The notes beneath the pieces are model-generated. The model was given only the letters and a program-made list of their open reading frames with translations, ran no database searches and had not been told where the DNA came from. The position numbers and the translations under genes are program-made. Positions 2,079 through 24,218 of a DNA stretch of 64,000 bases are shown here, piece after piece. How positions within the stretch are numbered: position 1 is the stretch's first letter; each line of letters begins with the position of its first letter. Origin of the DNA: Candidatus Nanoarchaeia archaeon (lineage in GTDB: Archaea > Nanobdellota > Nanobdellia > SCGC-AAA011-G17 > JACPNG01); the NCBI GenBank assembly GCA_028714375.1, contig JAQTMK010000001.1:136988-200987 (forward strand). Direction: 5' to 3'.

Positions 2079-2828
2079 ATGTCATTTGAATTTAAGGTTT
2101 TGAAAAAAGTAAAATTAAACAAACCAATATTGATAGAAGGTCTTCCTGGAATAGGAAATGTAGGAAAGATTACTGCTGATTTTATTATAGAATCTCTTAA
2201 GGCAGAAAAAATAATTGATATCAGGACCTACAATCTGCCAAATGCAGTTTTTGTTGGAGAAGATAATCTGATCGAATTACCTTCATTGGCAATATATTAT
2301 AAAAGATGGAAAAATAATGATATCCTGATCCTTGGAGGAGATGTTCAACCTCTGGATGAAAAATCCTGTTATGAATTTTGTGATTTATTATTACAATTAC
2401 TAAAATCCTATAATACTCAGGAAATTATTACCATTGGAGGTATTGGCCTTGGCACAGCCCCTATGGATCCAAAAGTGTTTGCAACTGCAAATAATAAAAA
2501 AATGCTTGCAAAATACAAGCACAATAAAGTATCAAGCAGTTTATATGGGATTGTTGGTCCAATTGTAGGAGTGACTGGAATTCTTCCAGCCTTGTCTTCA
2601 AGATATGATATTCCTTCAATAATTTTATTGGCAGAAACCTTGGGTCATCCAGGTTATCTTGGCATAAAAGGATCAAGGGCAGTACTGCAGGTTTTAGAAT
2701 CTAAGTTTAGTTTTAAGATGGATCTGAAATCATTGGATGCTGAAATAAATGAACTTGAAACCGAATTAAAAGCCAAAGATTTAAGTTTAATATTAAAAAA
2801 ACAGTCGAGTATAGATTATATTGGTTAA
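2079..2828 (+). CDS. proteasome assembly chaperone PAC2-family protein
   Basis: LIEGLPGIGNVGKITADFII motif typical of archaeal PAC2/ATP-grasp-like proteins; in its usual place after nop10. Confidence 0.8.
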   Translation: MSFEFKVLKKVKLNKPILIEGLPGIGNVGKITADFIIESLKAEKIIDIRTYNLPNAVFVGEDNLIELPSLAIYYKRWKNNDILILGGDVQPLDEKSCYEFCDLLLQLLKSYNTQEIITIGGIGLGTAPMDPKVFATANNKKMLAKYKHNKVSSSLYGIVGPIVGVTGILPALSSRYDIPSIILLAETLGHPGYLGIKGSRAVLQVLESKFSFKMDLKSLDAEINELETELKAKDLSLILKKQSSIDYIG

Positions 2829-4039
2829 AACAATTTTTTTTGTTCTTCTTTGCTTGCTTTAATCTCACCATAAACTCCGTCATACCCAGGATTTATTTTT
2901 AATTTTCCTTCTCTGCTCATTAAAATCAAATCAGCAAGTTTCCTATCGCTTATTTTTAAAATATCTTCATGTTTTTTATGAATTAAGATATCATACTCAT
3001 TTCCAAGATGTTTTGTCATTCTTTCATAAACTTCTAGAACTTTCTTAGATTCAACATTTTTACTGCCTACAGAAGCAGCAATCAATTCTGCAAGAGGAAT
3101 TAGTTTGTAAAATGGTTTATAATTTTTTGATTTATACCCAAATTTTCTAGTTGCCAATTCCTCAACTCTGTAATCAACTCCGATAGTTAAAGGTTTTTTA
3201 CAAACAGGACATATACCATTAAGTTTTTTGCTTTCAGTAGGAGTTAGCTGAACATTACAGGCTCTGTGACCATCCCAATGATATTTTCCGTATTCAGGAT
3301 AAACCTCAATTGTTCCTGCTAAATTTTTTCCGGTTCTTATAGCATTTAATATATTTTTATAACTCATCTCTCCATCGAACATTGTTGCCTCTCTTCCAAT
3401 CCTCCATGGATGATGGCTGTGCATGTCAGAAAAACTAACAATATTAAAATTGTCTAAACTTTCAACTCTCATATTCATTTCAACATCAGAACTCATACCA
3501 GTTTCAAAAGCATGAATTTTATTTACTTTGTCTCCAAAACAAGCTTGTAAGGAATCAAATCCAGACTTACTCCCTAAAGCACCAAACCAAGAAGTCCAAA
3601 TATGTGCGGGAATTACTTCAATCTTATCACTTATGTTATTTAATTTTTCAACAAACTCAATGCTTGACATTCCAAAAATTGGCCTTCCATCATAATCAAC
3701 TCTTCCTTTTTTCAATAATTCATCAGTAATCTGTTTTACAACTTCACCATTTGGAGCCAAAACAAGATGATGGACCCTTCTTCCTTTTCCATCTTGGGTA
3801 TATGCTAAAGAAATCTCAGTCTGCCATAAAAAAGGAAATTTATTTTTAGTCCATAATATCCCATTTTCGTCCTCAGTTAGTTTTTCTTTGATTTCTTTTA
3901 TCCATAAAGGATGTGTAAAATCTCCGACTCCCAATATATTGATCCCTTTTGTTCTTGCACCGTTTTCAAGATTTTCAATTGTGATATTTTTACTGCAGGC
4001 AGCAGAATATCTGCTATGTATATGTAAATCAGCAATCAT
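2825..4039 (-). CDS. PHP-domain nuclease, endonuclease Q (EndoQ)-like
   Basis: N-terminal MIADLHIHSRYS PHP metal-binding start, further His/Asp motifs, and a C-terminal Zn finger (CPVCKKP). The EndoQ assignment is from memory of the family architecture. Confidence 0.5.
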   Translation of the reverse strand: MIADLHIHSRYSAACSKNITIENLENGARTKGINILGVGDFTHPLWIKEIKEKLTEDENGILWTKNKFPFLWQTEISLAYTQDGKGRRVHHLVLAPNGEVVKQITDELLKKGRVDYDGRPIFGMSSIEFVEKLNNISDKIEVIPAHIWTSWFGALGSKSGFDSLQACFGDKVNKIHAFETGMSSDVEMNMRVESLDNFNIVSFSDMHSHHPWRIGREATMFDGEMSYKNILNAIRTGKNLAGTIEVYPEYGKYHWDGHRACNVQLTPTESKKLNGICPVCKKPLTIGVDYRVEELATRKFGYKSKNYKPFYKLIPLAELIAASVGSKNVESKKVLEVYERMTKHLGNEYDILIHKKHEDILKISDRKLADLILMSREGKLKINPGYDGVYGEIKASKEEQKKLF

Positions 4040-4069
4040 AAAAATAAAAAAAGAAAGAAGTATTTAAGG

Positions 4070-4999
4070 TTAATTAAAGTCAGTATTTTCTACTGTAAAG
4101 GAAGTAGCAATTGAATCTTTGTACATGTAACTTAATTCAATGTTGATTGGTTTGCTAAATGCAGTTTCCTGTAATCCAGATGTTTCAATATCACAACTGA
4201 CTGTTCTTCCTCCAGATATCAAATCCACAATGCCTTCACTCCCATCATTTAATCTTGAACATTTAATTGGAATATTTCCAGTAGTGCTCACTTTAACTCT
4301 TACTTGTTCATCCATATCAGGAGTTTCAACACATTCAGATCCAAATACACCAGGAGCATAAACCATCCCTGTTCCCTGAGTCATTATATCGAAAGTTAAT
4401 TTGATTGATGAACTTCTTGGAATCTGACTCATGCTTACTACATGAACTGGAGCTCCAGAGTTTTCTAGTCCCATATTTTCATTGTTTACAGTGCATAAAT
4501 CCTCAGTAGTGTCGTCATTTGGTTTTTTCTTTAAACATATATCTGCAACAGCTTTTGTATTATACTCATAACAGACATCTGCTCTTAAATCAACTGGGAA
4601 ATCAGAATCTAGATTGTACTTATAATTCATTCTCTTAAATCTTATTTCTAGTTGGTCTGACTCAGTAACTGTGTCTCTTATCTTGGTTTTCTTTTCCAGT
4701 TTGGTAGGAGATGATTGTGATAAAGAACTCATTGAAAATGCATCTCTTTCAACTCCCTGTAATGTAACAATTAACCTTCCAGAATCAATATCAGCCTCAC
4801 CATCGTTTATAGCTAATATGCTTACATCAAATTCATCTTCTGCATTGTCTCCAACTACAGATGGAGGTTCTCCATCAACAAAACTTAAAGTTAGTCCTGT
4901 AGTCCCACCAATAAATCGGTTAGATGTACTACTGTCTTCAGTACTTGTGCACCCAAACAAAAATAAAACAACAAATAGAGCCATTAAATATTTTTTCAT
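4070..4999 (-). CDS. secreted lipoprotein, unknown function
   Basis: Signal peptide ending in the lipobox LFGC; Ser/Thr-rich linker. Confidence 0.5.
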   Translation of the reverse strand: MKKYLMALFVVLFLFGCTSTEDSSTSNRFIGGTTGLTLSFVDGEPPSVVGDNAEDEFDVSILAINDGEADIDSGRLIVTLQGVERDAFSMSSLSQSSPTKLEKKTKIRDTVTESDQLEIRFKRMNYKYNLDSDFPVDLRADVCYEYNTKAVADICLKKKPNDDTTEDLCTVNNENMGLENSGAPVHVVSMSQIPRSSSIKLTFDIMTQGTGMVYAPGVFGSECVETPDMDEQVRVKVSTTGNIPIKCSRLNDGSEGIVDLISGGRTVSCDIETSGLQETAFSKPINIELSYMYKDSIATSFTVENTDFN

Positions 5000-5000
5000 T

Positions 5001-6284
5001 TTAGTTTTCCTCCAGATAAATATTCAAACTTTCAATATCAAAATCATTCTTAGGTATTATTTTGATGTAGTTTGCACCTCTTTGGATATACTCAGAGATG
5101 TCTTTTACAAATGTTTCCTTGGTAACATCCATGTTGAATTTAATATCATTTACTGCAATCTGTGACTGTTTTCTGTCAACAGCGTTCTTGAATTTAAATC
5201 TTAAGATAACATCATATTTTGTATAATCTGATTTACAGTCATCTATACACTCATTGTAGTCCGTTGTTCCTTTTGTATAATCATCCTTACATTCATCTTC
5301 ACAGGTAGTGTAATCAATATTGTCAACATAGTCATAATCATCGTCTTCAATGAAGAATGTATATTCTGCTTCTAATTTTTCAGAAACATCAAGATTAATC
5401 TGAACATCCTCCAACTTATAATTTCCCTTATCAATACTGAATTCTATTGAGTTGCTTCCTTCTTCAAGATCCTCTTCAGATATGTCTATTTTTGTTTCTT
5501 TAGCATCACAAAGCACCCTTTCTTTATTGATTGATCTGCCGTTCATCTTAATTTCCAATAATCCCTCTTCAATATTAATGCAGTTCAAGTAATAAGTTAA
5601 TTCTGCGGTTTTAATTCCTTTTTTCTCAGAAGCAGTCAATACAAAGTTTCTTCTTACGTTTTTGTTTTCTAATTTACTTACATATTTTAACTGAATTGTT
5701 TTTAATTCAAATTCGTTCTTGAAAATAAATGAGTTAGTGCTAATCTTTAATGTATTATCTTTTTGCAAATAACTTGTTGGAAGATTAATCGGTATGTCCT
5801 GGCTGTTGATTTCATCATCAAATATCTTAACTCCGTTTAATTCTACTTTAAGATTTCCTGATCCATCGTTTATGAAGAAATATAAATCAAGACTTTGGGC
5901 CATGTCTACATCATCAAGTCTGAAATACATTGTCTGAGAACCATCCTTAAACAAACTATCGCTTACATAAAGTCTGTCAGCAAGTTTGATTATTTCCTCA
6001 CTGTTTTTTGAATATAATGCAATGTCTCCAAATTCTTTCTCCACTGTATCTTCATCTAACTTGTAAACTCTTCCTGGAGAAACTGCCAGCAAACTGATTT
6101 TATCCAATTCGCTCTGACTTACATTAGAACCTGGAATCACTCCAGTATCATATTTTAATAATTCCTCTCTTTCATCAGCAGGTAATAAAATAACATAAAC
6201 AATAATGAATAAAGCCAAAAGAAGTACAAAAGTAGCTATTGCTACACCACCCTCAAGTTCCCCTCTCTTAGATTTCATATTCAA
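5001..6284 (-). CDS. large secreted protein with class III (pilin-like) signal peptide
   Basis: N-terminus MNMKSKRGELEGGVAIATFVLLLALFIIVYVILL: KRG followed by a hydrophobic helix, the archaeal prepilin-like pattern. 427 aa extracellular domain. Confidence 0.5.
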   Translation of the reverse strand: MNMKSKRGELEGGVAIATFVLLLALFIIVYVILLPADEREELLKYDTGVIPGSNVSQSELDKISLLAVSPGRVYKLDEDTVEKEFGDIALYSKNSEEIIKLADRLYVSDSLFKDGSQTMYFRLDDVDMAQSLDLYFFINDGSGNLKVELNGVKIFDDEINSQDIPINLPTSYLQKDNTLKISTNSFIFKNEFELKTIQLKYVSKLENKNVRRNFVLTASEKKGIKTAELTYYLNCINIEEGLLEIKMNGRSINKERVLCDAKETKIDISEEDLEEGSNSIEFSIDKGNYKLEDVQINLDVSEKLEAEYTFFIEDDDYDYVDNIDYTTCEDECKDDYTKGTTDYNECIDDCKSDYTKYDVILRFKFKNAVDRKQSQIAVNDIKFNMDVTKETFVKDISEYIQRGANYIKIIPKNDFDIESLNIYLEEN

Positions 6285-8444: not shown

Positions 8445-10130
8445 ATGGGTTTAATTAAGACAATTAGAGATGTTAAAAGACTTAAAAATATTGCGAATGT
8501 ATTATTCTCATATGAATTAGGTAATTTAGTGCATAATCTGGGACTAAGTTCTCATATCCCATTCACAAAAAGGCTCAGTAAAGAACAATTTATCGATAAA
8601 TCTGATTTTGTTGCCTACAGATTAAGGCAGTCTATGGAAGAACTTTCTGGAGCTTTTGTTAAGCTTGGACAGTTATTGAGTTTGCGTCCAGATCTGATTC
8701 CAAAAGAATACTGCGAGGAATTTTCAAAACTACAGGATCATGTTGCTCCATTTAGTTTTGTATCTGTTAAAAAAATAGTTGAAGAAGAATTAAAAAAACC
8801 CTTGGAGATGGCATTTTCTTCATTTGATAAAGACCCAATTGCATCTGCTTCAATAGGTCAAGTTCACAAAGCAAAATTAATTTCAGGGGAAACAGTTGCT
8901 GTCAAGGTTCAGAGACCATTCATCGATGAGATTTTCGAGACAGACATGGATCTGCTTTTCCACATTGCACATCTTGCTGAAAAGAATATGCCTGAATTAA
9001 GACAGTATGACCTGAATGCAATTGTAAAAGAATTTGAGGATTATACAAAAAAAGAACTGAATTATATTGTTGAAGCAAAAAACATAGAGGAATTTTATAA
9101 TAATTTCAAGAAAGATAATAATGTAAAGATCCCAAAAATATTCTGGAATTTTACAACCAAGAAGGTTTTGGTAATGGAATTTATTGAAGGAGAAAAAATA
9201 AAGGAAATTAAAAAACTAACTCCTACAAAAAAGAAAAAAATAGTGGATTTGATAACAAAATCAGTTATCAAACAAATTCTGGAGTATCATTTATTCCATG
9301 CAGATCCACACCCAGGAAATCTATTGATGTTGAAAGATGATAAGATTGCTTTCCTTGATTTTGGAATCGTAGGAAGATTAAGTGACGACTTGATAGAAAA
9401 AATAGAAGGAGTCATGATTGGATTAATTCTTCCAGATAAGGAATTATTATCAAGATCTTTGATTGAATTGGGATTTGTTAAAGAAGAGATTTATATTGAT
9501 GAATTTAAGGAAGATCTTTCCCATTATCTTGGTCAGTACTATGGTGTAAATGAAACTAAGATTGATTTGACTTCAGCAATGTATGATTTGATTTCATTGT
9601 CCAGAAAGTATAAGATGAAACTTCCAACCAACTTTGTTTTGCTGGTTAAGTCTTTGGCAACTTTGGAGGGACTGGTCAGGGAACTTGATCCAGAATACAA
9701 TCTTGTTGAATCCTTTAAGCCCTATGTGCAGAAGTTAGCAAAAAAAAGAAAGTCAGCAAAATATGGTTTGAAAAAATTAAAAAGTACAGCAGAGGATTTC
9801 ACATATACAATAAAAGAACTTCCAAAAGATATGAGGGATGCATTGAAAAATATAAAACAAGGAAATTTAAAATTAAATATTGATAACAAAGACATAAGAA
9901 GGTTTACCCTTGAAATAGATCGTTCAAGCAACAGGATTACCTATGGTTTGATTATTGCAGCATTGCTGGTTTCAGGCGCCTTGGTTATAATGGCAGACCT
10001 TCCACCATTCTATGAAGATATCCCAATGCTCGGAATTGTTTTCTTTTTATTGGCAGTTGTGTTCATATTCATATTTGTCATATCTATAATTATAGAAAAA
10101 ATAAGAGGGAGGAAAAATGAAGAAGATTAG
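8445..10130 (+). CDS. ABC1/UbiB-family atypical protein kinase
   Basis: AFVKLGQLLSLRPDLIP and IASASIGQVHKAKL motifs characteristic of ABC1/ADCK kinases; C-terminal TM helices. Confidence 0.8.
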   Translation: MGLIKTIRDVKRLKNIANVLFSYELGNLVHNLGLSSHIPFTKRLSKEQFIDKSDFVAYRLRQSMEELSGAFVKLGQLLSLRPDLIPKEYCEEFSKLQDHVAPFSFVSVKKIVEEELKKPLEMAFSSFDKDPIASASIGQVHKAKLISGETVAVKVQRPFIDEIFETDMDLLFHIAHLAEKNMPELRQYDLNAIVKEFEDYTKKELNYIVEAKNIEEFYNNFKKDNNVKIPKIFWNFTTKKVLVMEFIEGEKIKEIKKLTPTKKKKIVDLITKSVIKQILEYHLFHADPHPGNLLMLKDDKIAFLDFGIVGRLSDDLIEKIEGVMIGLILPDKELLSRSLIELGFVKEEIYIDEFKEDLSHYLGQYYGVNETKIDLTSAMYDLISLSRKYKMKLPTNFVLLVKSLATLEGLVRELDPEYNLVESFKPYVQKLAKKRKSAKYGLKKLKSTAEDFTYTIKELPKDMRDALKNIKQGNLKLNIDNKDIRRFTLEIDRSSNRITYGLIIAALLVSGALVIMADLPPFYEDIPMLGIVFFLLAVVFIFIFVISIIIEKIRGRKNEED

Positions 10131-10329
10131 AAAAGTAGCAAAAAAAGTTTTAAGCAAAAGAAACAGAGAATTAGCAAAAAGAGCTGCAAAAATAACTGTA
10201 AGGGAAGTTAGAAGAGTTGCACCAAAAGCAAGAAGAGAAGTTGAAAAAATATATCACTTTGGCAAGAGTGAAGCAAAAAAGATAATAATAGAGATTAAGA
10301 GATCTCCAAAAAAGAAGAAAAAGAAATGA
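10117..10329 (+). CDS. small Lys/Arg-rich basic protein (hypothetical)
   Basis: 70 aa, highly basic, poly-K tail. Overlaps the upstream stop and shares ATGA with the downstream peptidase gene, suggesting translational coupling. Confidence 0.35.
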   Translation: MKKIRKVAKKVLSKRNRELAKRAAKITVREVRRVAPKARREVEKIYHFGKSEAKKIIIEIKRSPKKKKKK

Positions 10330-11174
10330 TTTTTATAATTTTAGCTTTGATTGGAGTAGTCGGTCTAATTTTAGCTTCTTATTTTGATATTAAAACTAGG
10401 GAAATACCAAACATAATCAGTTTTACTATGATTGCTTTGGGATTAGGATTGAGATTAATCTATTCAGTCATAAACAAAGAGATTATGTTTTTTGTTTACG
10501 GATTGTTGGCATTCGGTATATTTTTCCTGTTTGGAGTTTTGATGTATTACACAAAACAATGGGGGGGAGGAGACACAAAATTATTAATGGCTCTTGGAGC
10601 ACTATTTGGAACTTGGTCAACAGATTATTTTTTATTATCTCTGATAATAACCTTAATTTTCGTAGCCGCTGTTTATGGATTAGTCTGGGCAGTTTATCTT
10701 ACAATCAAGAATTACAGGAAGTTTAGCAAGATTTTCAAGCAAATATATTATAATAAAAAAATCCAAACAATTATTATTTCTGTCTTCGCAGTTTTATTGA
10801 TATTGGTTTCTTTGATTATCGAAGACAAAACTCTCGGATTTGTGCTTACAATCATGGCCTTTTTGGTTTTGATTTATTATTATCTTCTGATTTATCTCAA
10901 GGTTGTTGAAAAAGCATGCATGGAAAAAACAATCCCGGTATCAAAACTGACAGAAGGCGATTGGGTAATCCATGATGTTAAAAAAGGAAATAAACTGATT
11001 TATTCTAAAAAATATAATATAACAAAAAAACATATTGAAATTTTAAATAAATATAAAATCAAAGAAGTTACAATCAAAGAAGGATTTCCTTTTGTTCCAG
11101 CTTTTCTTCTGGCTTTAATAATTAATTTTTTAATAAGTAAAATTTTGGTTAGATTTTTGCTTAGTTTTATGTAA
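10326..11174 (+). CDS. A24-family prepilin/preflagellin peptidase (PibD/FlaK-like)
   Basis: Polytopic membrane protein with the catalytic Asp in DIKTREIPN and the second catalytic motif WGGGDTKLLMALG. Confidence 0.75.
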   Translation: MIFIILALIGVVGLILASYFDIKTREIPNIISFTMIALGLGLRLIYSVINKEIMFFVYGLLAFGIFFLFGVLMYYTKQWGGGDTKLLMALGALFGTWSTDYFLLSLIITLIFVAAVYGLVWAVYLTIKNYRKFSKIFKQIYYNKKIQTIIISVFAVLLILVSLIIEDKTLGFVLTIMAFLVLIYYYLLIYLKVVEKACMEKTIPVSKLTEGDWVIHDVKKGNKLIYSKKYNITKKHIEILNKYKIKEVTIKEGFPFVPAFLLALIINFLISKILVRFLLSFM

Positions 11175-12535: not shown

Positions 12536-13291
12536 ATGGGAAATAAATATTTAGAATGGATTGGAACTGGTTCAGGATTAAATTTTACATTAGGAAACAC
12601 TTCTTTTTTAATCAAAGGAGGAGAGAGAATCCTTTTAGTTGATTGTGGATATACAGTTCCATTAGAATTAATGAAATCTGGACAATTAAAAGATATAACA
12701 GATGTTATTCTGACTCATACCCATGCTGACCATATTGGAGGGATTGAAGGGTTTGCTTATATGAATTACTTTGCTTTTAAAAAAAGAGAAGACCAAAGGC
12801 CAAATCTTTACATTGCGACAGAAAAATTTGCACAGAGATTATGGAATAATTCTCTTAAGGGAGGATTAGAAAAGATACAAGATGAGGAGAATATCCCTCA
12901 AAATGTAACTCTTGATACTTACTTCAAGATCCATATTGGGAAACAGATAGATATTTTAGGATTACCAACTGCAACATTATTTCCAGCATCCCATGTCCAG
13001 GGAATGGAGAATTATGGAGTAAGTTTTGACAACGGAGTTTGGTATTCTGGGGATTCTTTAGACTTACCCAAAAACAATTCAAAACTAATTTTTCAAGATT
13101 GCCAATTCTACGAAACTATAGCCGATGTTCATGTATCTTATAACAGATTAAAACAAGAATTGTCTCCAGACGTTAAAGCCAAAACATATCTTGTTCATCT
13201 TGGTGGTGGTTGGGAACAAAAAAATCCAAAGGCAGATGGTTTTGCAGGATTTGTTATGCCTAAACAAAGATTTGATCTTGAATCCCTATAA
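12536..13291 (+). CDS. metallo-beta-lactamase-fold hydrolase
   Basis: LTHTHADHIGG (HxHxDH) motif with downstream His/Asp ligands. Confidence 0.75.
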   Translation: MGNKYLEWIGTGSGLNFTLGNTSFLIKGGERILLVDCGYTVPLELMKSGQLKDITDVILTHTHADHIGGIEGFAYMNYFAFKKREDQRPNLYIATEKFAQRLWNNSLKGGLEKIQDEENIPQNVTLDTYFKIHIGKQIDILGLPTATLFPASHVQGMENYGVSFDNGVWYSGDSLDLPKNNSKLIFQDCQFYETIADVHVSYNRLKQELSPDVKAKTYLVHLGGGWEQKNPKADGFAGFVMPKQRFDLESL

Positions 13292-13368: not shown

Positions 13369-13608
13369 ATGGAACTAAGCTTAATTGGTCTGATTGTTCT
13401 TGTATTAGGTTGGATAATCCAGTTAATTCATTCCTGGAAAAACAACCACGAAATAAGACAATGGTTTTTAATCTTTTACATGGTTGGTGTTGGATTATTA
13501 GTTATAGATGGCTTCCAAAATAATTTAAAAGAATTAGCAATCCTAAACCTAGTCAGTTTGATTGTTGCTGGATTAATCCTGTTAAGATTAAAATTCAGGA
13601 AGAAATAA
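13369..13608 (+). CDS. small two-TM membrane protein (hypothetical)
   Basis: 79 aa, two hydrophobic helices; GGAGG-like ribosome-binding site (TTGGAGGTG) 7 nt upstream. Confidence 0.4.
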   Translation: MELSLIGLIVLVLGWIIQLIHSWKNNHEIRQWFLIFYMVGVGLLVIDGFQNNLKELAILNLVSLIVAGLILLRLKFRKK

Positions 13609-14665
13609 TTCTGTTTTTTATTGTTATTTTTGTTTTGCTTAATTTGATTCTTTTTTCCGCTTCACTTAATATCAACTTTAGCATTTCAGGATAGGAAAAA
13701 TTTTCAAGTGAAAACATCGTTGACAGATGACTGTCCCAGCACCATCCAGGATTTGGGTTTACTTCAAGTAATTTTGGTTCTCCGTTTTCATTTAATCTCC
13801 AGTCAAATCTTGCATAGTCTTTGCACTTCATGTATTGGAACATTTTTAATGAACCATCTTCAACTAGTTTTTTAGTGGATTTATCCAAGATTACAGGAAC
13901 AGATTTGATACATTTCCAGTAAGCAGATTCTGGTTCCCACTTTGCTTCACTTCCGCATATTTTTGGTAAATCTTCTGGCAGCGTGCCGTAATCTTCCTTA
14001 ATCATTGGCAAAACCTTGTAAGAATAAGGTGGATTTCCTAATATTCCAACCATAACATCATCACCGCTTAAGAATTCCTCAATCAAGATTTTTCCATTGT
14101 ATTTGAATTTGGTTCTTAATGTTAAAATTGCTTTATTTAATTCTTTATTATTTTTTACAACACTGTCTTTATTTATTCCAAAACTTCCATCACCCTGTGC
14201 AGGTTTTACAATTACAGGAAAACTAATTTCTTCATCGATTTCATTCTCATTTTCTTTAAGTAAATAAAATTTAGCAGTTGGAACTCCAAGTTTTTCTGCA
14301 TAAACTTTGACTAGATGTTTGTCATAACAGGTAACCAATCCCTCTCTGCTTGCACCAGTGTAAGGAATTTCTAATCTGGTTAATAAATCAGGAATGTCTG
14401 CTTCATGTTTTGGGTCATTGTTAAATCCTTCATCGCATAAATTAAAAACAAAATCAGTATTGTCTTTGAGTTTAATCAAATCTTCTTCAAGAGTATCATG
14501 ATTGTCTAGAAAAGTAAAATTAATGTTTTCAATTTTATTTAGAGCTTCTTTTAATTTACGGATGGTCTCAAAATCATCCTCATCAAAAATTCCGCCAGGT
14601 TTTACTGGATCAGATTTTCTTGGGTCTCCGAGTATCACGACAATATTTTTTATCAATGTTAACAC
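13595..14665 (-). CDS. ATP-grasp enzyme, D-alanine--D-alanine ligase-like
   Basis: N-terminal Rossmann-like ILGDPRKSD, central ATP-grasp region, C-terminal LLEVNPNPGW motif typical of the Ddl family. Confidence 0.55.
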   Translation of the reverse strand: MLTLIKNIVVILGDPRKSDPVKPGGIFDEDDFETIRKLKEALNKIENINFTFLDNHDTLEEDLIKLKDNTDFVFNLCDEGFNNDPKHEADIPDLLTRLEIPYTGASREGLVTCYDKHLVKVYAEKLGVPTAKFYLLKENENEIDEEISFPVIVKPAQGDGSFGINKDSVVKNNKELNKAILTLRTKFKYNGKILIEEFLSGDDVMVGILGNPPYSYKVLPMIKEDYGTLPEDLPKICGSEAKWEPESAYWKCIKSVPVILDKSTKKLVEDGSLKMFQYMKCKDYARFDWRLNENGEPKLLEVNPNPGWCWDSHLSTMFSLENFSYPEMLKLILSEAEKRIKLSKTKITIKNRIISS

Positions 14666-17590: not shown

Positions 17591-18583
17591 CTATAAAGAA
17601 TTAACAACTTCACTCAAAACTTTTTTGACATCAACTTTTTCAACATAATTCCCAGTAAACTCAACTCTCTGGAACATTTCGTTTTTATTTGTTCTTCCAG
17701 AAACTTTAATTAATTCACCCAAAATATTGTCTTTTACAGAATTAAACAAATCAGGATTTTTCCTTATCTCTAAGATTGTCTCATCATCCAATTTTAAAAT
17801 TTTCTTTGCATTATCTCTAAAAAGAACAGTTCTTATTGCTTCAGATCCGTCATCAAGATAAAAATTTAAGATAGGAACAGGAACTTCTTTCACAATCCCA
17901 TGCTCATTGCATTTAAATGCTCCATCCTCAAAAATAACTTTTTTGTTGCATTCAGGACATGAATCATAAAATCTTAAGTCAAAAACCTGAACAATAGTCC
18001 CTTGTATTGTTGTGTTTTGATTTTCACCCAAATCTTTAATCTTAACTACACTCCCTCTATCAATTTCTTTGTTAACATCAGCGATTACAACACCGGCAGG
18101 ATTGATTTCAATCTTTGAATCATTAGTAAGGTGAATTTCTTTTCCAAAATTATTCTCTTTGATATAAAAATTATCAACCCTTAGTATATCATTAGGATTT
18201 ACAGTTTCAATAGTGTTTATTTGGTTAGAATCCCAGATAACCAGCCTGCAGGTTCCAGAATCATCTCCAATAAGCAAATTCTGTACCTTGCCAATCCTTC
18301 CGTTTTTGTTAAACTCCCTGACATCATACTTTGCTATGACTTTGGAATTTAGAGTAACTCCTCTAACCCCAGAAAATAAATTTTTGATCTTAAAATCCTT
18401 CTTGGTGTTTTCAAATATTTTAACACCCAATTCATTTGCAACAATATGTGCAGCACCAGTATTGCTTATTAATCCAGAAAGTTTAGTTAACTTATCATTA
18501 ACTCTGAAATTGACGTCTTCTTTGCTAAGACCTTTCTCACTCATAATTCTTTCTATGATCTCTTCATAGGTTGTACCAAACAT
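17591..18583 (-). CDS. replication protein A (RPA)-like ssDNA-binding protein
   Basis: OB-fold-like segments with a C4 Zn finger (CPECNKK...CNEHG) between them; archaeal RPA architecture. Confidence 0.65.
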   Translation of the reverse strand: MFGTTYEEIIERIMSEKGLSKEDVNFRVNDKLTKLSGLISNTGAAHIVANELGVKIFENTKKDFKIKNLFSGVRGVTLNSKVIAKYDVREFNKNGRIGKVQNLLIGDDSGTCRLVIWDSNQINTIETVNPNDILRVDNFYIKENNFGKEIHLTNDSKIEINPAGVVIADVNKEIDRGSVVKIKDLGENQNTTIQGTIVQVFDLRFYDSCPECNKKVIFEDGAFKCNEHGIVKEVPVPILNFYLDDGSEAIRTVLFRDNAKKILKLDDETILEIRKNPDLFNSVKDNILGELIKVSGRTNKNEMFQRVEFTGNYVEKVDVKKVLSEVVNSL

Positions 18584-18601: not shown

Positions 18602-19420
18602 CTAAACATTAAATTGCTTAGAATTTTCAGTTTTTAAGTTTATTGGAAATCTAGAAGTAGTTTTATAAAAATAATTAAAAGTTATGGTTAATGGAACTGT
18701 TACATAATCTCCCTCAAATTTATATGGAATCTTGCATGGAGCACCAGTAAAACCTTTTTCTTCAAGATCTACCATGCTCTTGCAAATTGTATTTTCATTC
18801 CCTATTTTTACATTTAGATCAGAAACATAATAAACTTCATTCTTTTCTTCTAAAGAATTAATTAATTTTCCGCCACCCTTATTGGCGATGTCAATTTTAA
18901 GGGCTATTATCCCTGCGTCAGTATATTCTGCAATAACACTGATTATAGTTACAGGATATCTTGCTGCAAAATTGTTTCTTGGAGCTAGATTGATATTGTA
19001 AACACCCTTGGTTATTTTTGCTGTATAATCCTGTTCAAATTCAACACCATAATAAACATCTGCGGTAACTTGCAATTTTTCTGGATTTTTATAATTTTCA
19101 TTAAACAAAACAGAAATGTCCTTTGGTTCGATTAATTTATTATTCTCATAACTTATTCCTTCAAGACTAAACCCTTCATACCTTTCAGCATTTTCATTAT
19201 CCCAAAGTTCAATCATTCCCTGAGTCGCTATTGGCATATTGTTTTTTAATATTATCTTAAATTCAACATCATAATTTTTATCTGAAGCAGGGTATATATC
19301 TATTACTGAAGGATTTGTACTGATATCAATTCCCCTGTTTGGAGTGGACTCAGTTTTTTCTCCAGACTTACATCCAACTAACAAAACCAGTACAAACATT
19401 AAAAATATTATTTTTTTCAT
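18602..19420 (-). CDS. lipoprotein (hypothetical), last gene of the pilin-like operon
   Basis: Signal peptide with lipobox LLVGCKSG; start overlaps (ATGA) the stop of the upstream 488-aa gene. Confidence 0.5.
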   Translation of the reverse strand: MKKIIFLMFVLVLLVGCKSGEKTESTPNRGIDISTNPSVIDIYPASDKNYDVEFKIILKNNMPIATQGMIELWDNENAERYEGFSLEGISYENNKLIEPKDISVLFNENYKNPEKLQVTADVYYGVEFEQDYTAKITKGVYNINLAPRNNFAARYPVTIISVIAEYTDAGIIALKIDIANKGGGKLINSLEEKNEVYYVSDLNVKIGNENTICKSMVDLEEKGFTGAPCKIPYKFEGDYVTVPLTITFNYFYKTTSRFPINLKTENSKQFNV

Positions 19421-20883
19421 ACTCTATCTTCTTCTATTTTTTTAATCATGACTCCAACTGATTTCTGATAATTAAATGTGTAGTCCGCAGTTACAGTCAT
19501 TTTAGTTGAAGTATAAGGTCTTATATTTAAGTTGGGTTCCTCGCTTAATTTTAATTTACATGGAATCTCAAATGTGTTTATATTATCCCCAAGAACCATG
19601 CATGTGTTTCCATCATATTTTTTATTGAATGGGGGTGCACTCCTTTTGTTTATTTCATCCAAAACCTCTTTCTTTAATGTGCCATCGTTTTCAAAACATC
19701 CGCAGTTCTGGTTTTCCATTTCCAAACCTCTTGGTATGTTCATTTTAAGACTTTTTATCTTTTCTATTGCTCCAATCCCTTCTTTTTCTACTTTAATCAT
19801 AATTAGTGGATTATTCTGAATTGTAAATGGCTGATAAGAACCAGCACCTATTGAAATTTTAACAGGCCCAGAATCAAGTTTCACTGATTTAACTAAATCA
19901 TTTTCTAGTAAGCCAGTTGTTTTTGGATCATTTTTAATCTCATAAAATACATCTTCGATGTTTTCATTTTCAGCGGTGGTTAAGAATAATAATTGTTCTG
20001 TTTCTGCATGGCTGTCATAACTTATGTTTAAACTGGCAGCTTTTGTTTCAACATTGTTTTTTATTTCTTTGATCCCATCTGGAAAATTACATATAACAGT
20101 ATTTGTTCTTGAATTTATTGTTCTAGCTTCATTTGGAATAATATTATTGATCACATACTTACCGTCTTCTGAAACCTTAGAAGTGCCACCAACTGTATAT
20201 TCTGGTTTGCCATCATAATCCTCTAATTCACAAACAATTTTTAAATCTAAACTTATTTGGCCTTCATTTAATGTTACCCCATTTATAGTATATTTTCCAT
20301 TTATGCTGACTGGGTAATTTTCATAAAAAGGACCATTGGATTCTAATTGAGTAATTTCAACTCCTTTTAGTGGTCCAGTTGTTTTAGCACTAGGATCTGT
20401 CCACGATCCAAATGATTCTTCTGGATGTAAAATCAAACCAACAGTATTTGTGATTAATTTACCTATTTGTTGAATCCCTTCGTTAGATTTAGCCCATATA
20501 CTGATTCCTTCTGTTCCTGCTGAAAAAAATCCAGAACTCATCCATACAACTAGGACAATTATACCAATTATTATCAGCCATTTCCCCCAGTGTTTTGGTT
20601 GTTTAAGTATGGTTGTACTTGGTCCAGAAGATTGTTGGGCAGGAACTTGTTGAGGTGCAGAACGTCTACCACCAGCTCCAATAATCCCTTTTAATGCATT
20701 CCATCTAGCATTCCTTGTTTTCCATGTATTTGCATTAAAAGATGCTTTTCTAGATCTCCTTTCCATTCTTTTATCAGATCTTTCAGCACTTCTTCCAATT
20801 ACACTGAATATTTTTTTAAAAAATCCTCTTTTTTCTTTTGGAGCAGAACTGTCTCCCCCTCCAGTAGATTCTATAGATCCCAT
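19417..20883 (-). CDS. single-pass membrane protein with basic cytoplasmic N-terminus and large extracellular domain
   Basis: About 100 aa R/K-rich N-terminal region, one TM (WLIIIGIIVLVVWM), then a roughly 380-aa extracellular domain. Confidence 0.5.
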   Translation of the reverse strand: MGSIESTGGGDSSAPKEKRGFFKKIFSVIGRSAERSDKRMERRSRKASFNANTWKTRNARWNALKGIIGAGGRRSAPQQVPAQQSSGPSTTILKQPKHWGKWLIIIGIIVLVVWMSSGFFSAGTEGISIWAKSNEGIQQIGKLITNTVGLILHPEESFGSWTDPSAKTTGPLKGVEITQLESNGPFYENYPVSINGKYTINGVTLNEGQISLDLKIVCELEDYDGKPEYTVGGTSKVSEDGKYVINNIIPNEARTINSRTNTVICNFPDGIKEIKNNVETKAASLNISYDSHAETEQLLFLTTAENENIEDVFYEIKNDPKTTGLLENDLVKSVKLDSGPVKISIGAGSYQPFTIQNNPLIMIKVEKEGIGAIEKIKSLKMNIPRGLEMENQNCGCFENDGTLKKEVLDEINKRSAPPFNKKYDGNTCMVLGDNINTFEIPCKLKLSEEPNLNIRPYTSTKMTVTADYTFNYQKSVGVMIKKIEEDRV

Positions 20884-20907
20884 TTTTTCCTCTTTTTAAT
20901 ATTTTAT

Positions 20908-21570
20908 TTACTTTAAATTATTTAAATCTATCTCAGCTTTGATAACCTGATTCTCATAATTAATCTCAACAATAACTTTTGTTTTTTCCTTGTTTAAAAC
21001 TTTAAAATCATAACTTTTGTCAAAACATGCTTCTAATTCTTTTTTCTCTTCATCATCCTTTAGATTTTCCTTTACACTAATTAAACAGTCTCTTCTGTAA
21101 GATTTATTAAATTCCTTGAAATCAAACAAAACAAAATCATATGAAAAATCTAAATTTTTACTGTAGGTTATCTTTCCTTCTTTTTCCTGATATGAAATAA
21201 TCCCGTCAGTCCAGTAAATCCTGTCTTTGGTTTTCCCAATTATTTTTCCATTTATGATTGAAATCTCATAGTTTGTAGGCATGTTATTTAATTTAAGCAA
21301 TTTATAAAATTCATTTGTAAATTGGTTCTTGAAATCATACTCTTCATTATAGTTTTTTGAAGCCTTTTCAGCACTAATTCTTACAGAAGAATCAAGATAA
21401 AACAATTCTGCTTCAACATCATTATACGCATCTATCAAGCTTAAGGAATTATCTCCAACTTCTTTTAATCCAGTTCTTTTAATATCAAACAAAAACATTG
21501 CAGATAAAAGTATTAGGATTATTCCGATTGTTGCCAAAGGCAATGTCATGTCAGTTCCTTTCTTATTCAT
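20908..21570 (-). CDS. pilin-like protein with class III signal peptide
   Basis: Internal start MNKKGTDMTLPLATIGIILILLSAMFLF (KG then hydrophobic helix). The ORF-track start is 8 codons further upstream. Confidence 0.5.
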   Translation of the reverse strand: MNKKGTDMTLPLATIGIILILLSAMFLFDIKRTGLKEVGDNSLSLIDAYNDVEAELFYLDSSVRISAEKASKNYNEEYDFKNQFTNEFYKLLKLNNMPTNYEISIINGKIIGKTKDRIYWTDGIISYQEKEGKITYSKNLDFSYDFVLFDFKEFNKSYRRDCLISVKENLKDDEEKKELEACFDKSYDFKVLNKEKTKVIVEINYENQVIKAEIDLNNLK

Positions 21571-22069
21571 CTTTTTCAGTTCTTGCAATTGCAAGTTTAA
21601 TTTTTACAAGTTTATCCTGATAAGGATATTTTACTTCAGCTTCGCTTTTTATTGGGAATTGGTTTAGCATTTTATCTTCCCACATATCTTCATTATAACC
21701 TGCTCCGAGTGGAACAATATACTCATCATAAATCTCTCTTTCATCAATAAACATCTTCCATAAACATTCTTCATTAATTTTGCAATAACCATTAATCAAA
21801 GGTTTCATAACAGCTATGATTTTGCTTTCATCCTCTTCGTTTTCAATAACAAAATCAGATAAGTATTGATCCTCAACTTTTGTTTTTAATAAATTAATAA
21901 GAAGCAGATTAACATCCTCGTCTACTCCTTTAGTGATAATTTTTTCTTCAATATCAGAGCCTTTCTTAAAACTTGAACTTAAACTAAAAAAGAAAAGAGC
22001 TAAGATTAACACAAATGCAAATATGGAAAGAATATCTTTTAATGGAAATACCTCACCTCTCTTATTCAT
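21563..22069 (-). CDS. pilin-like protein with class III signal peptide
   Basis: MNKRGEVFPLKDILSIFAFVLILALFFFSL. Confidence 0.55.
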   Translation of the reverse strand: MNKRGEVFPLKDILSIFAFVLILALFFFSLSSSFKKGSDIEEKIITKGVDEDVNLLLINLLKTKVEDQYLSDFVIENEEDESKIIAVMKPLINGYCKINEECLWKMFIDEREIYDEYIVPLGAGYNEDMWEDKMLNQFPIKSEAEVKYPYQDKLVKIKLAIARTEKDE

Positions 22070-22496
22070 CTAATATTACCCCCATTTCTAAAAGTTTAAG
22101 TTTGTTTTCAACAAGAACATATTTTTTTTCAGAATAACAATTCTTTTCTAATTTACATAAATTTAATTGGTCTTTATAACTTTTAATATCGTTGGAAATT
22201 TCCTTATCACCAATTTTTGCATAAATTAAATTATCAGTACTGATGCAGTTTTTTAATCTCTCTTCTGTAAATTTATTCATATCGATTGTTCCAGGATAAA
22301 CTCTTAGGTCTTCCAAAGCAAAGCAATCACTGCTGTAAAACAATCTCTTCATCATTAAGTCAGATTCAAAATTACCAACCTTAATCTCTTGATTCACAGC
22401 TAAGTGTAATACAGCCACAACTGCAGCAACCATAATACCCAAAACAACCAAAATCAATACCTGATAAGGTAATTTTTCTCCCAAATCAGAACTCAT
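22062..22496 (-). CDS. small secreted/membrane-anchored protein, possible atypical prepilin
   Basis: MSSDLGEKLPYQVLILVVLGIMVAAVVAV: Gly then charged residues then a hydrophobic helix, but no K/R before the G. Confidence 0.4.
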   Translation of the reverse strand: MSSDLGEKLPYQVLILVVLGIMVAAVVAVLHLAVNQEIKVGNFESDLMMKRLFYSSDCFALEDLRVYPGTIDMNKFTEERLKNCISTDNLIYAKIGDKEISNDIKSYKDQLNLCKLEKNCYSEKKYVLVENKLKLLEMGVILDE

Positions 22497-22822
22497 GAAC
22501 TCACCTCAAACTTTCTTTCTTCCTGTTTCCAGTTTAATTTAGTAACATTACTTGGATAATAATTAAAATTAAACAACCCCTGTTTAACTAAATTTATTGT
22601 TATTTCCAAATCATCATCCTTATTTATATCATAAGATATCTTTGAATTCTTGCTAAGATAAAGTGTATCCAAAGTTAAACCAATATCAATTGTATTTGCT
22701 CTTCTCTCAAGAGCTCTTGAATTTTTAAAACTAGCAACATAATATCCCAATGAAGCAACCACAATTACAGCAACCAGTATTGAAAAAAGCATAAATAACT
22801 GCATCTCCCCTCTTTTTTTCAT
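22493..22822 (-). CDS. pilin-like protein with class III signal peptide
   Basis: Internal start MKKRGEMQLFMLFSILVAVIVVASLGYY. The ORF-track start 16 codons upstream is probably spurious. Confidence 0.5.
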   Translation of the reverse strand: MKKRGEMQLFMLFSILVAVIVVASLGYYVASFKNSRALERRANTIDIGLTLDTLYLSKNSKISYDINKDDDLEITINLVKQGLFNFNYYPSNVTKLNWKQEERKFEVSS

Positions 22823-22859
22823 GTTAAGAATTAGATTTATAGTATTTATATTAGTTTTG

Positions 22860-23339
22860 TTAAGCAACACTATACTTTCCAGATTCGAGTTTTACGTTTA
22901 CCGGTCTCAAGTCATCAAGATTGGATAAGACTACCCCAGAACTAATAAAATCATAACTCAAAACTTTACAAACCATAAATTTTTGTTCTTCAGTATTATA
23001 AACACAAATGCAGGATAATTCTTTGCACTGGATGTTTTTTTCTATCACCTTATCATCAAAAGCTTTCAAAGAACCTTCAGCTGAAAATTTATTCTTTGCA
23101 TATATTGTGTATTCATCGCTTATCTGCATCGGAATACTTGTTCCTTTGCCTTCTTCAAGTCCTTTTAATGTAGTATATAGATCGTTAAAACTGTTATCAG
23201 TTGCAGAATCCATTTCAACTTCATCAGGAATTAATGTTTTGTATAAATCTGTTAAAAATGTAGCTACAACCAAAGTTACAATAATACCTAAGATTAATAA
23301 GATAAGAAACTTTAAAGTCATTAAACCTCTTTTATTCAT
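22860..23339 (-). CDS. pilin-like protein with class III signal peptide
   Basis: MNKRGLMTLKFLILLILGIIVTLVVATFL; preceded by the duplicated promoter element. Confidence 0.55.
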   Translation of the reverse strand: MNKRGLMTLKFLILLILGIIVTLVVATFLTDLYKTLIPDEVEMDSATDNSFNDLYTTLKGLEEGKGTSIPMQISDEYTIYAKNKFSAEGSLKAFDDKVIEKNIQCKELSCICVYNTEEQKFMVCKVLSYDFISSGVVLSNLDDLRPVNVKLESGKYSVA

Positions 23340-23368
23340 TAAATTAAAATAAAAAAGAAATATATAAA
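23337..23368 (-). promoter_or_regulatory. duplicated promoter/start element, copy 1 (includes ATG of gene 22860-23339)
   Basis: Identical 32 nt CATTAAATTAAAATAAAAAAGAAATATATAAA. On the coding strand this is TTTATATA (TATA-box-like) about 22-29 nt upstream of the ATG. Confidence 0.6.
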
Positions 23369-23386
23369 CTTAATTAAAAATGAACT

Positions 23387-23722
23387 TTAGTAATTTACTG
23401 CCTTTTTATATTTATTTGATTTTAGTGGGGGATGAATTAAGTCGGGAAGGACATTATAATAGAACTTTGCCCAATAATCTTGGATAATCCTGTGTGAGTG
23501 GCCATTAAAGAAGCCAAGTTTTCTTACTTCCTCTTGTAATTTTATTTCAAGATCCCTGAGATACCCATCTACGATTGGTATTGATGGGATTTCTTCCCCC
23601 CCAGAAGAATAAGATATGTCCCTTTTAAATTCTGCTAAGATTTTATTTCTATTCTGATCAATAAACTTACAAAACTCCTCATAACAACTTTTCTCTAAAC
23701 TTTTAAGATTTGAATTATCCAT
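23387..23722 (-). CDS. hypothetical cytoplasmic protein inside the pilin-like operon
   Basis: 111 aa, no signal peptide; preceded by copy 2 of the duplicated promoter. Confidence 0.45.
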   Translation of the reverse strand: MDNSNLKSLEKSCYEEFCKFIDQNRNKILAEFKRDISYSSGGEEIPSIPIVDGYLRDLEIKLQEEVRKLGFFNGHSHRIIQDYWAKFYYNVLPDLIHPPLKSNKYKKAVNY

Positions 23723-23751
23723 TAAATTAAAATAAAAAAGAAATATATAAA
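23720..23751 (-). promoter_or_regulatory. duplicated promoter/start element, copy 2 (includes ATG of gene 23387-23722)
   Basis: Exact 32-nt match to 23337-23368. Confidence 0.6.
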
Positions 23752-23760
23752 ATTATGTTT

Positions 23761-24120
23761 TTATGCACAAGAAACCGTACAACTGATTAACTCATTGCAA
23801 TGAACTCCACTCTTAACCACACTTGTTGTAGGATCTAAAATATCAAACTCTTTTTTGCAATAAGCAGAATCCGATGCAATGAATTTTTGACTATTTGTTC
23901 TTTGCTCTTCTTTAGCTGCATCACAATACTGATTGCAGAACTGAATTGCTAATGATCTGTCAGTTCCAGCTGTTCCCTGGAAAAATATTCCTTTTATCTT
24001 ATCAGTTGTTCCTTTAAATCCGTATAGGAAGAAAAATACAACTGCAACTAAAACAATAATTACGATAATCGCTATAATAATTGTATTAAGAGAAATTTCC
24101 GCTCCTTTTTTATTAAACAT
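23761..24120 (-). CDS. archaeal type IV pilin-like protein (canonical class III signal peptide)
   Basis: MFNKKG|AEISLNTIIIAIIVIIVLVAVVFFFLYGF: KG-A cleavage-site pattern and a long hydrophobic helix. The track start (24129) appears to be GTG; the ATG at 24120 is preferred. Confidence 0.65.
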   Translation of the reverse strand: MFNKKGAEISLNTIIIAIIVIIVLVAVVFFFLYGFKGTTDKIKGIFFQGTAGTDRSLAIQFCNQYCDAAKEEQRTNSQKFIASDSAYCKKEFDILDPTTSVVKSGVHCNELISCTVSCA

Positions 24121-24218
24121 ACATTTCACCTCTAATTCAATTAAAACTTCTTGTTTTATTTAAATGTTTTGGTATACTATTTATAAAGAATTTTAAAGCC
24201 TTATAAAAAGAAAATAGT

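Follow-up and report, generated by a model that had tools for sequence, protein, structure and literature searches.

The DNA analysed here (the window) is a stretch of 64,000 nucleotides (nt) from contig JAQTMK010000001.1 of a Candidatus Nanoarchaeia archaeon (assembly GCA_028714375.1). Its minus strand carries nine co-oriented genes, g1 to g9, between positions 18602 and 24120. This locus most probably (about 80%) represents the pilin module of an archaeal type IV filament (T4P/TFF) system that is canonical in kind and conserved across Woesearchaeota-like Nanoarchaeia, with the motor encoded in trans. The reading draws on the N-terminal sequence motif of the gene products, the gene order and the motor synteny in relatives, the presence of genes for a prepilin peptidase and an assembly ATPase, and predicted folds. 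An initial annotation made from the sequence alone had placed eight co-oriented genes on this strand; the strand and the orientation stand, and the count is corrected to nine. The window has a composition of ~31% G+C and includes the archaeal housekeeping genes for aRF1, RadA, RPA and aIF2-alpha. The operon proteins are recorded at NCBI as hypothetical (PHE43_00910 to PHE43_00950, MDD5331367.1 to MDD5331375.1, on a contig of 382,062 bp), and the Logan assembly from SRR22315509 contains the same stretch.

Five of the genes, g1, g3, g4, g6 and g7, encode a [KR][KR]G start and then a hydrophobic segment of ~20 residues. The motif [KR]-[GA] before the hydrophobic domain is present in these five products and in a further protein encoded at 5001-6284, and is absent from g2, g5, g8 and g9. 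The residues at +1 in the operon are A, L, E, E and T. Of the six motif genes in the window, five lie within one span of seven genes (Bonferroni P ~1e-3), and the remaining signal-bearing proteins of the window have MKKxxxLLL starts of the Sec type or with a lipobox, with no G after KK. The motif had been ascribed to six genes of the operon and interpreted as the substrate pattern of A24 prepilin peptidases. That interpretation is supported, as the small proteins are pilin-like with a class III signal and the motif is conserved in their orthologues. The ascription holds for five genes and fails for g5, for which a cleavage site DLG/EKLPYQ had been suggested (here and below the slash marks the processing site): in an alignment of 61 members of the g5 family, the conserved K-x-G lies ~8 residues upstream, and g5 lacks it.

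The NCBI gene models begin at the same K/R-G starts, and the Logan/Prodigal calls for g4 and g7 begin at downstream Met codons instead. The K/R-G starts of g4 and g7 are preferred because the NCBI models agree with them and because orthologues conserve the residues that precede the alternative starts; the g4 start, KKRG[ED][LM]QLF, is kept in the homologue P0017 and in the related locus L032. Orthologues retain the motif, including with an exchange of Gly to Ala at -1 (MNKRA/E for g6 and KKA/M for g7). Among 30 related loci, [KR][GA] stands just before the helix in 245 of the 297 proteins of the operon zone that have an N-terminal transmembrane (TM) segment; of these 245, 231 also have K or R at -3, and the commonest +1 residue is Q. 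Positional orthologues nearly always have a KK[GA] start, and the motif is kept at every position of the operon. Archaeal processing sites include KG/Q and RA/x (PMC4371748, Table 1), and by its sequence the pattern in the relatives is this archaeal class III pattern.

The 30 loci, mostly labelled Woesearchaeota or Nanoarchaeota, were obtained from the GTDB species representatives by a pattern search with ten aligned sequences of the g5 family (the 61-sequence set was too diverse), and their 10-kb flanks were mapped with local hidden Markov models (HMMs). A search of species-representative contigs for synteny with RPA only gave no relative, the lineage of this metagenome-assembled genome (MAG) being absent there at 8-mer identity. 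The order (g1)-(g3)-(g4)-g5-(g6)-(g7) is conserved, and RPA comes next in at least 20 of the 30 loci. In these loci (among L004-L034) and the window, RPA is co-oriented with the pilin cluster except in L031, where it lies on the opposite strand. Beyond RPA follow a gene for an SSB-like protein of 83-95 amino acids (aa) and then radA, an unusually stable synteny between a surface operon and replication and repair genes. The contigs of L008, L015-L017, L019-L021, L027 and L031 are titled 'uncultured Methanosarcinales archaeon', which looks like a taxonomic mislabel.

In five of the loci (L002, L004, L005, L009 and L014), the cluster lies directly downstream of genes for an ATPase of ~750 aa and a 9-TM protein of ~700 aa. 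The former matches PF00437 in the three loci tested (L002, L004 and L005; E 1e-12 to 1e-17), and in all five it is 59-79% identical to P0109, the ATPase of the source MAG described below. The 9-TM proteins show a weak two-region match to T2SSF in two of the five (E 0.026 and 0.24). Overall, the ATPases of the relatives measure 747-759 aa and their single 9-TM proteins 701-750 aa, and the number of pilin-like genes ranges from 6 to >12. Upstream of the ATPase gene, at least L004 and L005 additionally encode two or three small 5-TM proteins and, in divergent orientation, two soluble proteins. In L011, L013, L015-L020 and L026-L029 the cluster is larger, with ~12-15 consecutive KK[GA]-type genes, and encodes very large proteins both at the upstream end, where they exceed 880 aa, and at the g7 position, where they reach 1452 aa. 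Because the relatives keep the gene order, with motor linkage in five loci, the operon of the window is interpreted as the pilin half of a filament locus that is lineage-wide.

No match to T2SSE (PF00437) or T2SSF (PF00482) was found among the ~40 open reading frames of the window that were scanned (every one of ≥200 aa that is not an opposite-strand shadow of a longer gene), and tblastn with the proteins of the relatives revealed no remnant of an ATPase or platform gene in the window. Hence the statement that the 64 kb hold neither gene was correct, as was the suggestion that the motor is encoded elsewhere. A homology search with the ATPase of L002 identified P0109 (MDD5331216.1) of Candidatus Nanoarchaeia, a protein of 757 aa annotated as 'type II/IV secretion system ATPase subunit' and 79% identical to the query. 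Its gene lies on the same 382,062-bp contig as the operon, 151 protein accessions (~130 kb) before g9. The closest available relative, the sister genome GCA_028714095.1 (contig JAQTMY010000001.1), has an ATPase (P0108) and a 9-TM protein of 750 aa ~137 kb from its pilin genes on the same contig, accompanied by the accessory genes known from the linked loci. The sister operon has the order g1-g3-g4-g5-g6-g7-g8-g9-RPA, with no g2, and its products are 61, 44, 60, 64, 44, 53, 30 and 26% identical to those of g1 and g3-g9, respectively; the value for RPA is 65%. As the sister genome has the same split between pilin and motor genes, the arrangement is inherited rather than an assembly artefact or a recent loss.

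The window itself includes a gene for an A24 prepilin peptidase, which the initial annotation had omitted. The protein matches PF01478 (E 2.1e-13, 51 bits versus a cutoff of 26.5) and has both catalytic Asp motifs (YFDIKTREIP and GGGDTKLL). It is likely the processing enzyme for g1, g3, g4, g6, g7 and the 5001-6284 protein. In L009, the orthologue of the peptidase adjoins a homologue of the latter protein.

Table 1. Genes of the pilin operon and related features of the window (positions are those of the whole stretch; a slash marks the putative processing site).
Feature	Position	Strand	Description
g1	23761-24120	-	119 aa, MFNKKG/AEISLNT, hydrophobic helix, small head with six Cys
g2	23387-23722	-	111 aa, no TM segment
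g3	22860-23339	-	159 aa, MNKRG/LMTLKF, four Cys, minor-pilin-like
g4	22493-22822	-	109 aa, MKKRG/EMQLF, minor-pilin-like
g5	22062-22496	-	144 aa, N-terminal helix and alpha/beta head, two conserved disulfide pairs
g6	21563-22069	-	168 aa, MNKRG/EVFPLKD, minor-pilin-like
g7	20908-21570	-	220 aa, MNKKG/TDMTLPL, last pilin-like gene
g8	19417-20883	-	488 aa, bitopic membrane protein
g9	18602-19420	-	272 aa, predicted lipoprotein, lipobox LLVG/C
RPA (Rep_fac-A) gene	17591-18583	co-oriented with pilin cluster	
A24 prepilin peptidase	10326-11174	+	282 aa, PibD/FlaK size, ~6-7 hydrophobic segments
Class III protein	5001-6284	-	427 aa, MNMKSKRG/ELEGGVAIATFVLLL; lipoprotein follows
Lipoprotein	4070-4999	-	309 aa, lipobox LFGC; g9 paralogue

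The genes of the operon are tightly packed, with overlaps of 4 nt between g4 and g5 and between g8 and g9 and of 8 nt between g5 and g6 and between g6 and g7. The remaining gaps are 18-47 nt; that between g7 and g8 is 24 nt and includes a ribosome-binding site (RBS). Scans of all nine proteins against Pfam, NCBIfam and PHROGs gave no family assignment above threshold, and sequence searches of the PDB with the operon proteins, as single sequences and as profiles, gave no match. A prophage or viral origin was rejected, there being no PHROG matches. An archaellum was likewise rejected, as neither an Arch_flagellin (PF01917) nor a Fla accessory match was found in the window or the operon. With the concatenated globular parts of g1 and g3-g8 as the query, an exhaustive HMMER search through 1.84 billion cluster representatives gave 94 matches, which included ~70 to g5 (140-170 aa), eight to g8 (390-514 aa) and about a dozen to g1 (nine retrieved and used); g3, g4, g6 and g7 each gave a single close orthologue.

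g1 has an RBS (GGTGA) and a promoter region of its own, and in the relatives it heads the pilin genes of the conserved cluster. Its family combines a near-invariant N-terminus, K[KR]G-x-x-L-S-L-N-T-IIIAILVLIVL, with small Cys-rich heads, which is the pattern expected of a major pilin. Given its size, position, N-terminal conservation and own promoter, g1 is likely the major pilin. In several loci the g1 family is accompanied by headless g1-like genes of 51-68 aa. The next gene, g2, has no family match and is absent from the operon of the sister genome and from all 30 loci. A direct repeat of 41 nt (23332-23372 and 23715-23755, 95% identical) brackets a g2 unit of 383 nt; the repeat takes in a TATA-like element and a T-rich tract as well as the start codons (ATG) of g3 and g2, and it lacks an RBS, as in leaderless-type promoters. 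Since it is missing from the relatives and flanked by the repeat, g2 is taken to be a recent, lineage-specific insertion between g1 and g3.

The g3 product has orthologues with the same motif in P0021 and L032 (44% identical), and that of g6 in P0024 (MNKRA/E) and L032 (44%). The g7 product is 53% identical to that of L032, and for both g3 and g7 HMM matches occur at the same position in relatives. The positional orthologues of g7 range from 159 to 1452 aa, and on account of this size range the C-terminal part of g7 is considered variable and adhesin-like. The N-terminal module of g4 is common to proteins of L003 (1245-2177) and L013 (8821-9861), and g4 is the short form of a family that in some relatives carries M23 or Amidase_3 domains.

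Among the operon proteins, g5 has by far the most detectable relatives, and g5, g1 and g4 are the products most nearly identical to their counterparts in the sister genome. Its product starts with MSSDLGEKLPYQ, and the family consensus x-K-x-G lies ~8 residues upstream of this start in the 61-member alignment. An AlphaFold2 model of g5 (pLDDT 92.9) shows a long N-terminal helix and a compact head, which is predicted to be PDC/PAS-like; Foldseek gave no significant match of the model in the PDB.

g8 has a basic cytoplasmic tail of ~100 aa, a single TM segment at 103-121 and a beta-rich ectodomain of 370 aa with six Cys and a predicted Ig-like fold, and g9 has the lipobox LLVGC, so that the description of the pair as a single-TM protein of 488 aa with a basic tail and a lipoprotein was accurate. 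In a word-indexed search for homologues, g8 matched only itself, and library scans with g9 gave matches to lipoprotein signal regions only. Both genes evolve about twice as fast as the pilin genes. They occur together in all four contexts in which they were found: in the window, L032 and L034 they directly follow g7, and in L006 they lie 7 kb away from the pilin genes. In most relatives g7 is followed directly by RPA, without g8 and g9. From this distribution, the pair is a separable two-gene module of some lineages only. An equivalence to the bacterial alignment subcomplex of bitopic PilN/PilO and lipoprotein PilP was rejected, as the short tail and the ferredoxin-like domain of those proteins are not seen in the pair. 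A fusexin was also considered and rejected.

A similar arrangement is found at 2825-6284 on the minus strand, where the class III protein at 5001-6284 and the lipoprotein at 4070-4999 are followed by a protein of 404 aa with the start MIADLHIHS (a PHP-like motif, with no Pfam match). The class III protein had been pointed out in the initial annotation, and its KRG motif is indeed present. The first two genes mirror g8 and g9, and the two lipoproteins are paralogues (24% identity over 303 aa, E 2e-5; compare 26% between g9 and the g9 of L032). g8 was rejected as a paralogue of the 5001-6284 protein, to which it has no similarity. The homologue of the latter in L009 (E 6e-35), the one beside the A24 peptidase, starts with ...KRA/QGSVAVLIAL.

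A mechanism can be proposed for the locus. The products of g1, g3, g4, g6 and g7 would be made as prepilins with the class III signal M-x-[KR][KR]-G and a hydrophobic helix, insert into the membrane and be cut after Gly by the A24 peptidase. The T2SSE-family ATPase and a polytopic platform, encoded in trans ~150 genes away on the same contig, would then extract the subunits into a filament. In such a filament, g1 would be the major subunit and g3-g7 minor pilins of fixed order, probably a priming or tip complex, which g5 may join unprocessed, contributing its PDC/PAS-like head. g7 would occupy the position at which relatives have large adhesin-like extensions. g8 and g9 would be a fast-evolving accessory pair that shares the transcription unit and most likely serves in adhesion or host contact. 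Cleavage, filament assembly and the assignment of major, minor and tip subunits are deduced from the gene content and the sequences.

Several findings speak against this interpretation. The curated models for pilins and class III proteins (PF04021, PF07790, PF01917, TIGR02537 and NCBIfam) match no protein of the operon, and the curated pilin models in an NCBIfam scan of 140 cluster relatives matched none; the HMM check that had been proposed for the small proteins was therefore negative. In the g1 family no curated pilin model was matched, one member reaching 0.015 to Arch_flagellin, and the g5 family had no match to the pilin or class III models. Under a FlaFind-type rule, [KRDE][GA][ALIFQMVED][ILMVTAS]x3, applied as a strict regular expression rather than with the actual program, only g3 (RGLMTL) passes. 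The K-G motif of most members of the g5 family is lost in g5 and its nearest relatives P0014, P0028 and L032. g5 provides the only head structure predicted with high confidence, and this resembles PDC/PAS sensor domains and not known pilin folds. The platform gene beside that of P0109 in the source MAG is expected from its presence in all six relatives rather than seen directly, and it is proximity that ties g8 and g9 to the pilus.

Some of these findings would be expected if the small proteins were ordinary, uncleaved signal-anchored (type II) membrane proteins in which K/R-G is a positive-inside feature; the curated pilin HMMs match none of them, four of the five motif genes do not pass the FlaFind-type expression, and the head of g5 is not a known pilin fold. 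Against it stand Gly or Ala almost invariably at -1 across hundreds of orthologues, with Q enriched at +1, Sec-type proteins of the same genome that lack the K/R-G feature, the T2SSE ATPase and platform genes linked to the cluster in five relatives, and the A24 peptidase in the window. This explanation is highly improbable. Only slightly more credible is a relic cluster, in which the pilin genes are decaying after their split from the motor and are no longer assembled. The loss of the processing motif in g5 would fit decay, as would the absence of the headless g1-like gene of the linked loci, with g2 in its place, and of the pilin genes that lie between platform and g1 in relatives. Yet all reading frames are intact, and the sister genome has kept both the split and all eight shared genes at 26-64% identity, the best being near the level of RPA. 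The ATPase is also intact and 79-80% identical to linked orthologues, and the motif-less g5 is common to the subclade of P0014, P0028 and L032 rather than a one-off lesion. Decay is therefore considered very unlikely.

A further alternative accepts processing by the A24 peptidase and use of the TFF machinery and replaces the filament with a short, membrane-anchored pseudopilus or surface complex that displays functional heads, as in a bindosome. The PDC/PAS-like head of g5 and the M23, Amidase_3 and PKD domains in relatives could be such heads. A 2026 preprint argues that proteins with a class III signal peptide (SPIII) 'functionalise' TFF machineries (10.64898/2026.04.22.720090), and the sugar-binding proteins of Sulfolobus are a precedent (PMC4371748). 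Nearly every locus nevertheless encodes a small protein of the g1 family whose helix is extremely conserved, which is typical of filament-forming major pilins, and the headless g1-like genes join g1 in several of them; a complex of this kind is thus judged distinctly unlikely. The fixed set of 4-5 minor pilins is common to pili and pseudopili alike and does not discriminate between them. A more serious question is whether the operon is a composite of two systems, with g8 and g9 an independent cassette of adhesin and lipoprotein that landed between g7 and RPA. Their absence from most relatives, the distance from the pilin genes in L006, the paralogous lipoprotein pair at 4070-6284, the faster evolution and the generic nature of an Ig-like fold would all agree with independence. 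Against it, the pair lies no more than 7 kb from the pilin cluster in all four contexts, with tight spacing directly after g7 in three, and the paralogous lipoprotein is paired with a class III protein whose homologue in L009 lies beside the A24 peptidase. Independence of the pair is a tangible possibility, if the less probable one.

The type IV filament reading differs from two suggestions of the initial annotation. That the products might be surface subunits not assembled by the canonical machinery is not upheld, as the pilin half of the locus is conserved across Woesearchaeota and pilins encoded in trans are documented (PMC4858521, PMC4371748). Nor is the operon the strongest candidate for an undescribed cell-surface system, being a poorly annotated but ordinary pilus locus. 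New here are the unannotated Woesearchaeal pilin families, the PDC-like head of g5, the g8/g9 pair and the hydrolase-bearing pilins of relatives.

The hydrolase domains came to light in a scan of the 140 cluster relatives and were confirmed with Pfam; they lie at the C-terminus. At the g4 position, the protein of L003 (1245-2177) combines the N-terminal module of g4 type with Peptidase_M23 (E 1e-23), and that of L013 (8821-9861) includes Amidase_3 (E 3e-13). Amidase-like regions are also found at this position in L015 (~8970-9893, E 6e-30) and, weakly, in L011 (~9505-9984, E 7e-4). A pilin-like protein of L015 (3815-4813) has a PKD domain. The domain content of the g4-position proteins suggests pilus-borne murein hydrolases aimed at bacteria. 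On the basis of these domains, the ligand-binding-type PDC/PAS-like head of g5 and a possible role of g8 and g9 in host recognition, the Woesearchaeal pilin set could be a device for host attack or host docking rather than a plain adhesion pilus, an idea that we put forward as speculative and rather unlikely. If it is true, archaeal murein hydrolases directed against bacteria would have, in class III signals, an export route that has gone unrecognised. The fusions of such hydrolases to the g4 module provide a link to archaeal peptidoglycan hydrolases that kill bacteria (PMC12352652). In that 2025 study, peptidoglycan hydrolases were prominent in Nanoarchaeota, a Sec or Tat signal was recognised in only a third of the archaeal enzymes, and class III signals were not considered.

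Other genes of the window include one at 12536-13291 (+) for a protein of the metallo-beta-lactamase fold, which matches Anti-Pycsar Apyc1 (PF23023) with 69 bits versus a cutoff of 50, and one at 13595-14665 (-) for an ATP-grasp protein of the D-Ala-D-Ala ligase type (Dala_Dala_lig_C, E 2e-27), here in an archaeal genome. At 30777-51385 (+), the adjacent surface-protein locus encodes a series of large secreted proteins whose signals are of the ordinary Sec type and not of class III. Its members include a protein of 1520 aa with 15 MopE-type and five thrombospondin-type-3 repeats and CARDB, a beta-helix/Big_13 protein of 991 aa and several Ig-like proteins. A stand-alone ATPase of the MinD/ParA family is encoded at 62012-62815 (-). 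Makarova et al. propose that clade-2 pili have a stand-alone FleN/MinD ATPase as their partner.

With respect to DPANN archaea, earlier surveys of nanoarchaeal ATPases did not identify the cognate pilins (PMC4858521), and a groundwater study reported components of type IV pili to be missing from DPANN genomes (10.1101/2020.05.14.094862). Pilin genes without a motor are a routine case of encoding in trans, which resolves the apparent anomaly of this operon. g1 and g3-g7 represent concrete, conserved pilin families of Woesearchaeota that Pfam and NCBIfam miss and that should be useful for the annotation of DPANN surface structures.

Pilins encoded apart from their motor have been described for Haloferax (PilA1-6 with PilB3C3), Halobacterium and Methanococcus maripaludis (EpdE versus EpdJKL) (PMC4858521; PMC4371748). 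Compared by features rather than by phylogeny, and by features that are descriptive and not diagnostic, the Woesearchaeal locus resembles TFF 'system 2', the clade-2 T4P of Makarova, represented by PilA1-6 and PilB3/PilC3 of Haloferax volcanii. Common to both are an ATPase of ~750 aa with a long N-terminal extension, a single platform gene, several pilins including non-SPIII ones, extra small membrane proteins, large adhesin-like proteins and a set of pilins in trans (10.64898/2026.04.22.720090; PMC4858521). However, the processing site is KK[GA]/x in the window and its relatives and D/R-A/VS in haloarchaea, PilA-type models are not matched, and the fixed order of g1 and g3-g7 beside RPA is specific to Woesearchaeota.

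With the Epd pili of M. maripaludis (system 1), the locus shares minor pilins, which are essential in Epd, beside a small major pilin, and sites of the KG/Q type (PMC4371748, Table 1). In Epd, as here, pilin and accessory genes form one operon, adhesin-like proteins are encoded in the locus, and the genes for the ATPase EpdL and the platform EpdJ/K lie elsewhere (PMC4858521; 10.64898/2026.04.22.720090). Membership of system 1 was rejected, since Epd has two platform genes and the large peptidase EppA, whereas the relatives have one platform-like gene of ~700 aa (6/6 loci) and the peptidase of the window, at 282 aa, is of PibD/FlaK size. In addition, the +1 residues in the window are not Q, and there is no similarity to the Pfam or NCBIfam models for Epd. 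Like the substrates of the Sulfolobus bindosome (Bas), the locus and its relatives include class III proteins with putative functional heads, PDC/PAS-like in g5 and M23 or Amidase_3 in relatives; unlike them, it has no substrate-binding-protein domains, no cluster-linked ABC transporter in the window and a small pilin of the g1 type. The closest parallel in bacteria is with the sets FimU-PilVWX-PilE with PilY1, GspH-K and ComGC-GG, in which a major pilin is likewise combined with a fixed block of 4-5 overlapping genes for small pilin-like proteins, often with a large adhesin-like protein at the end, one member without the usual processing or +5 features, and a presumed role in priming and at the tip. 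As no homology was found, the heads are not alpha/beta-rolls and the archaeal envelope has a single membrane, this likeness is one of analogy only, in which g1 would correspond to the major pilin and g3-g7 to the minor-pilin block.

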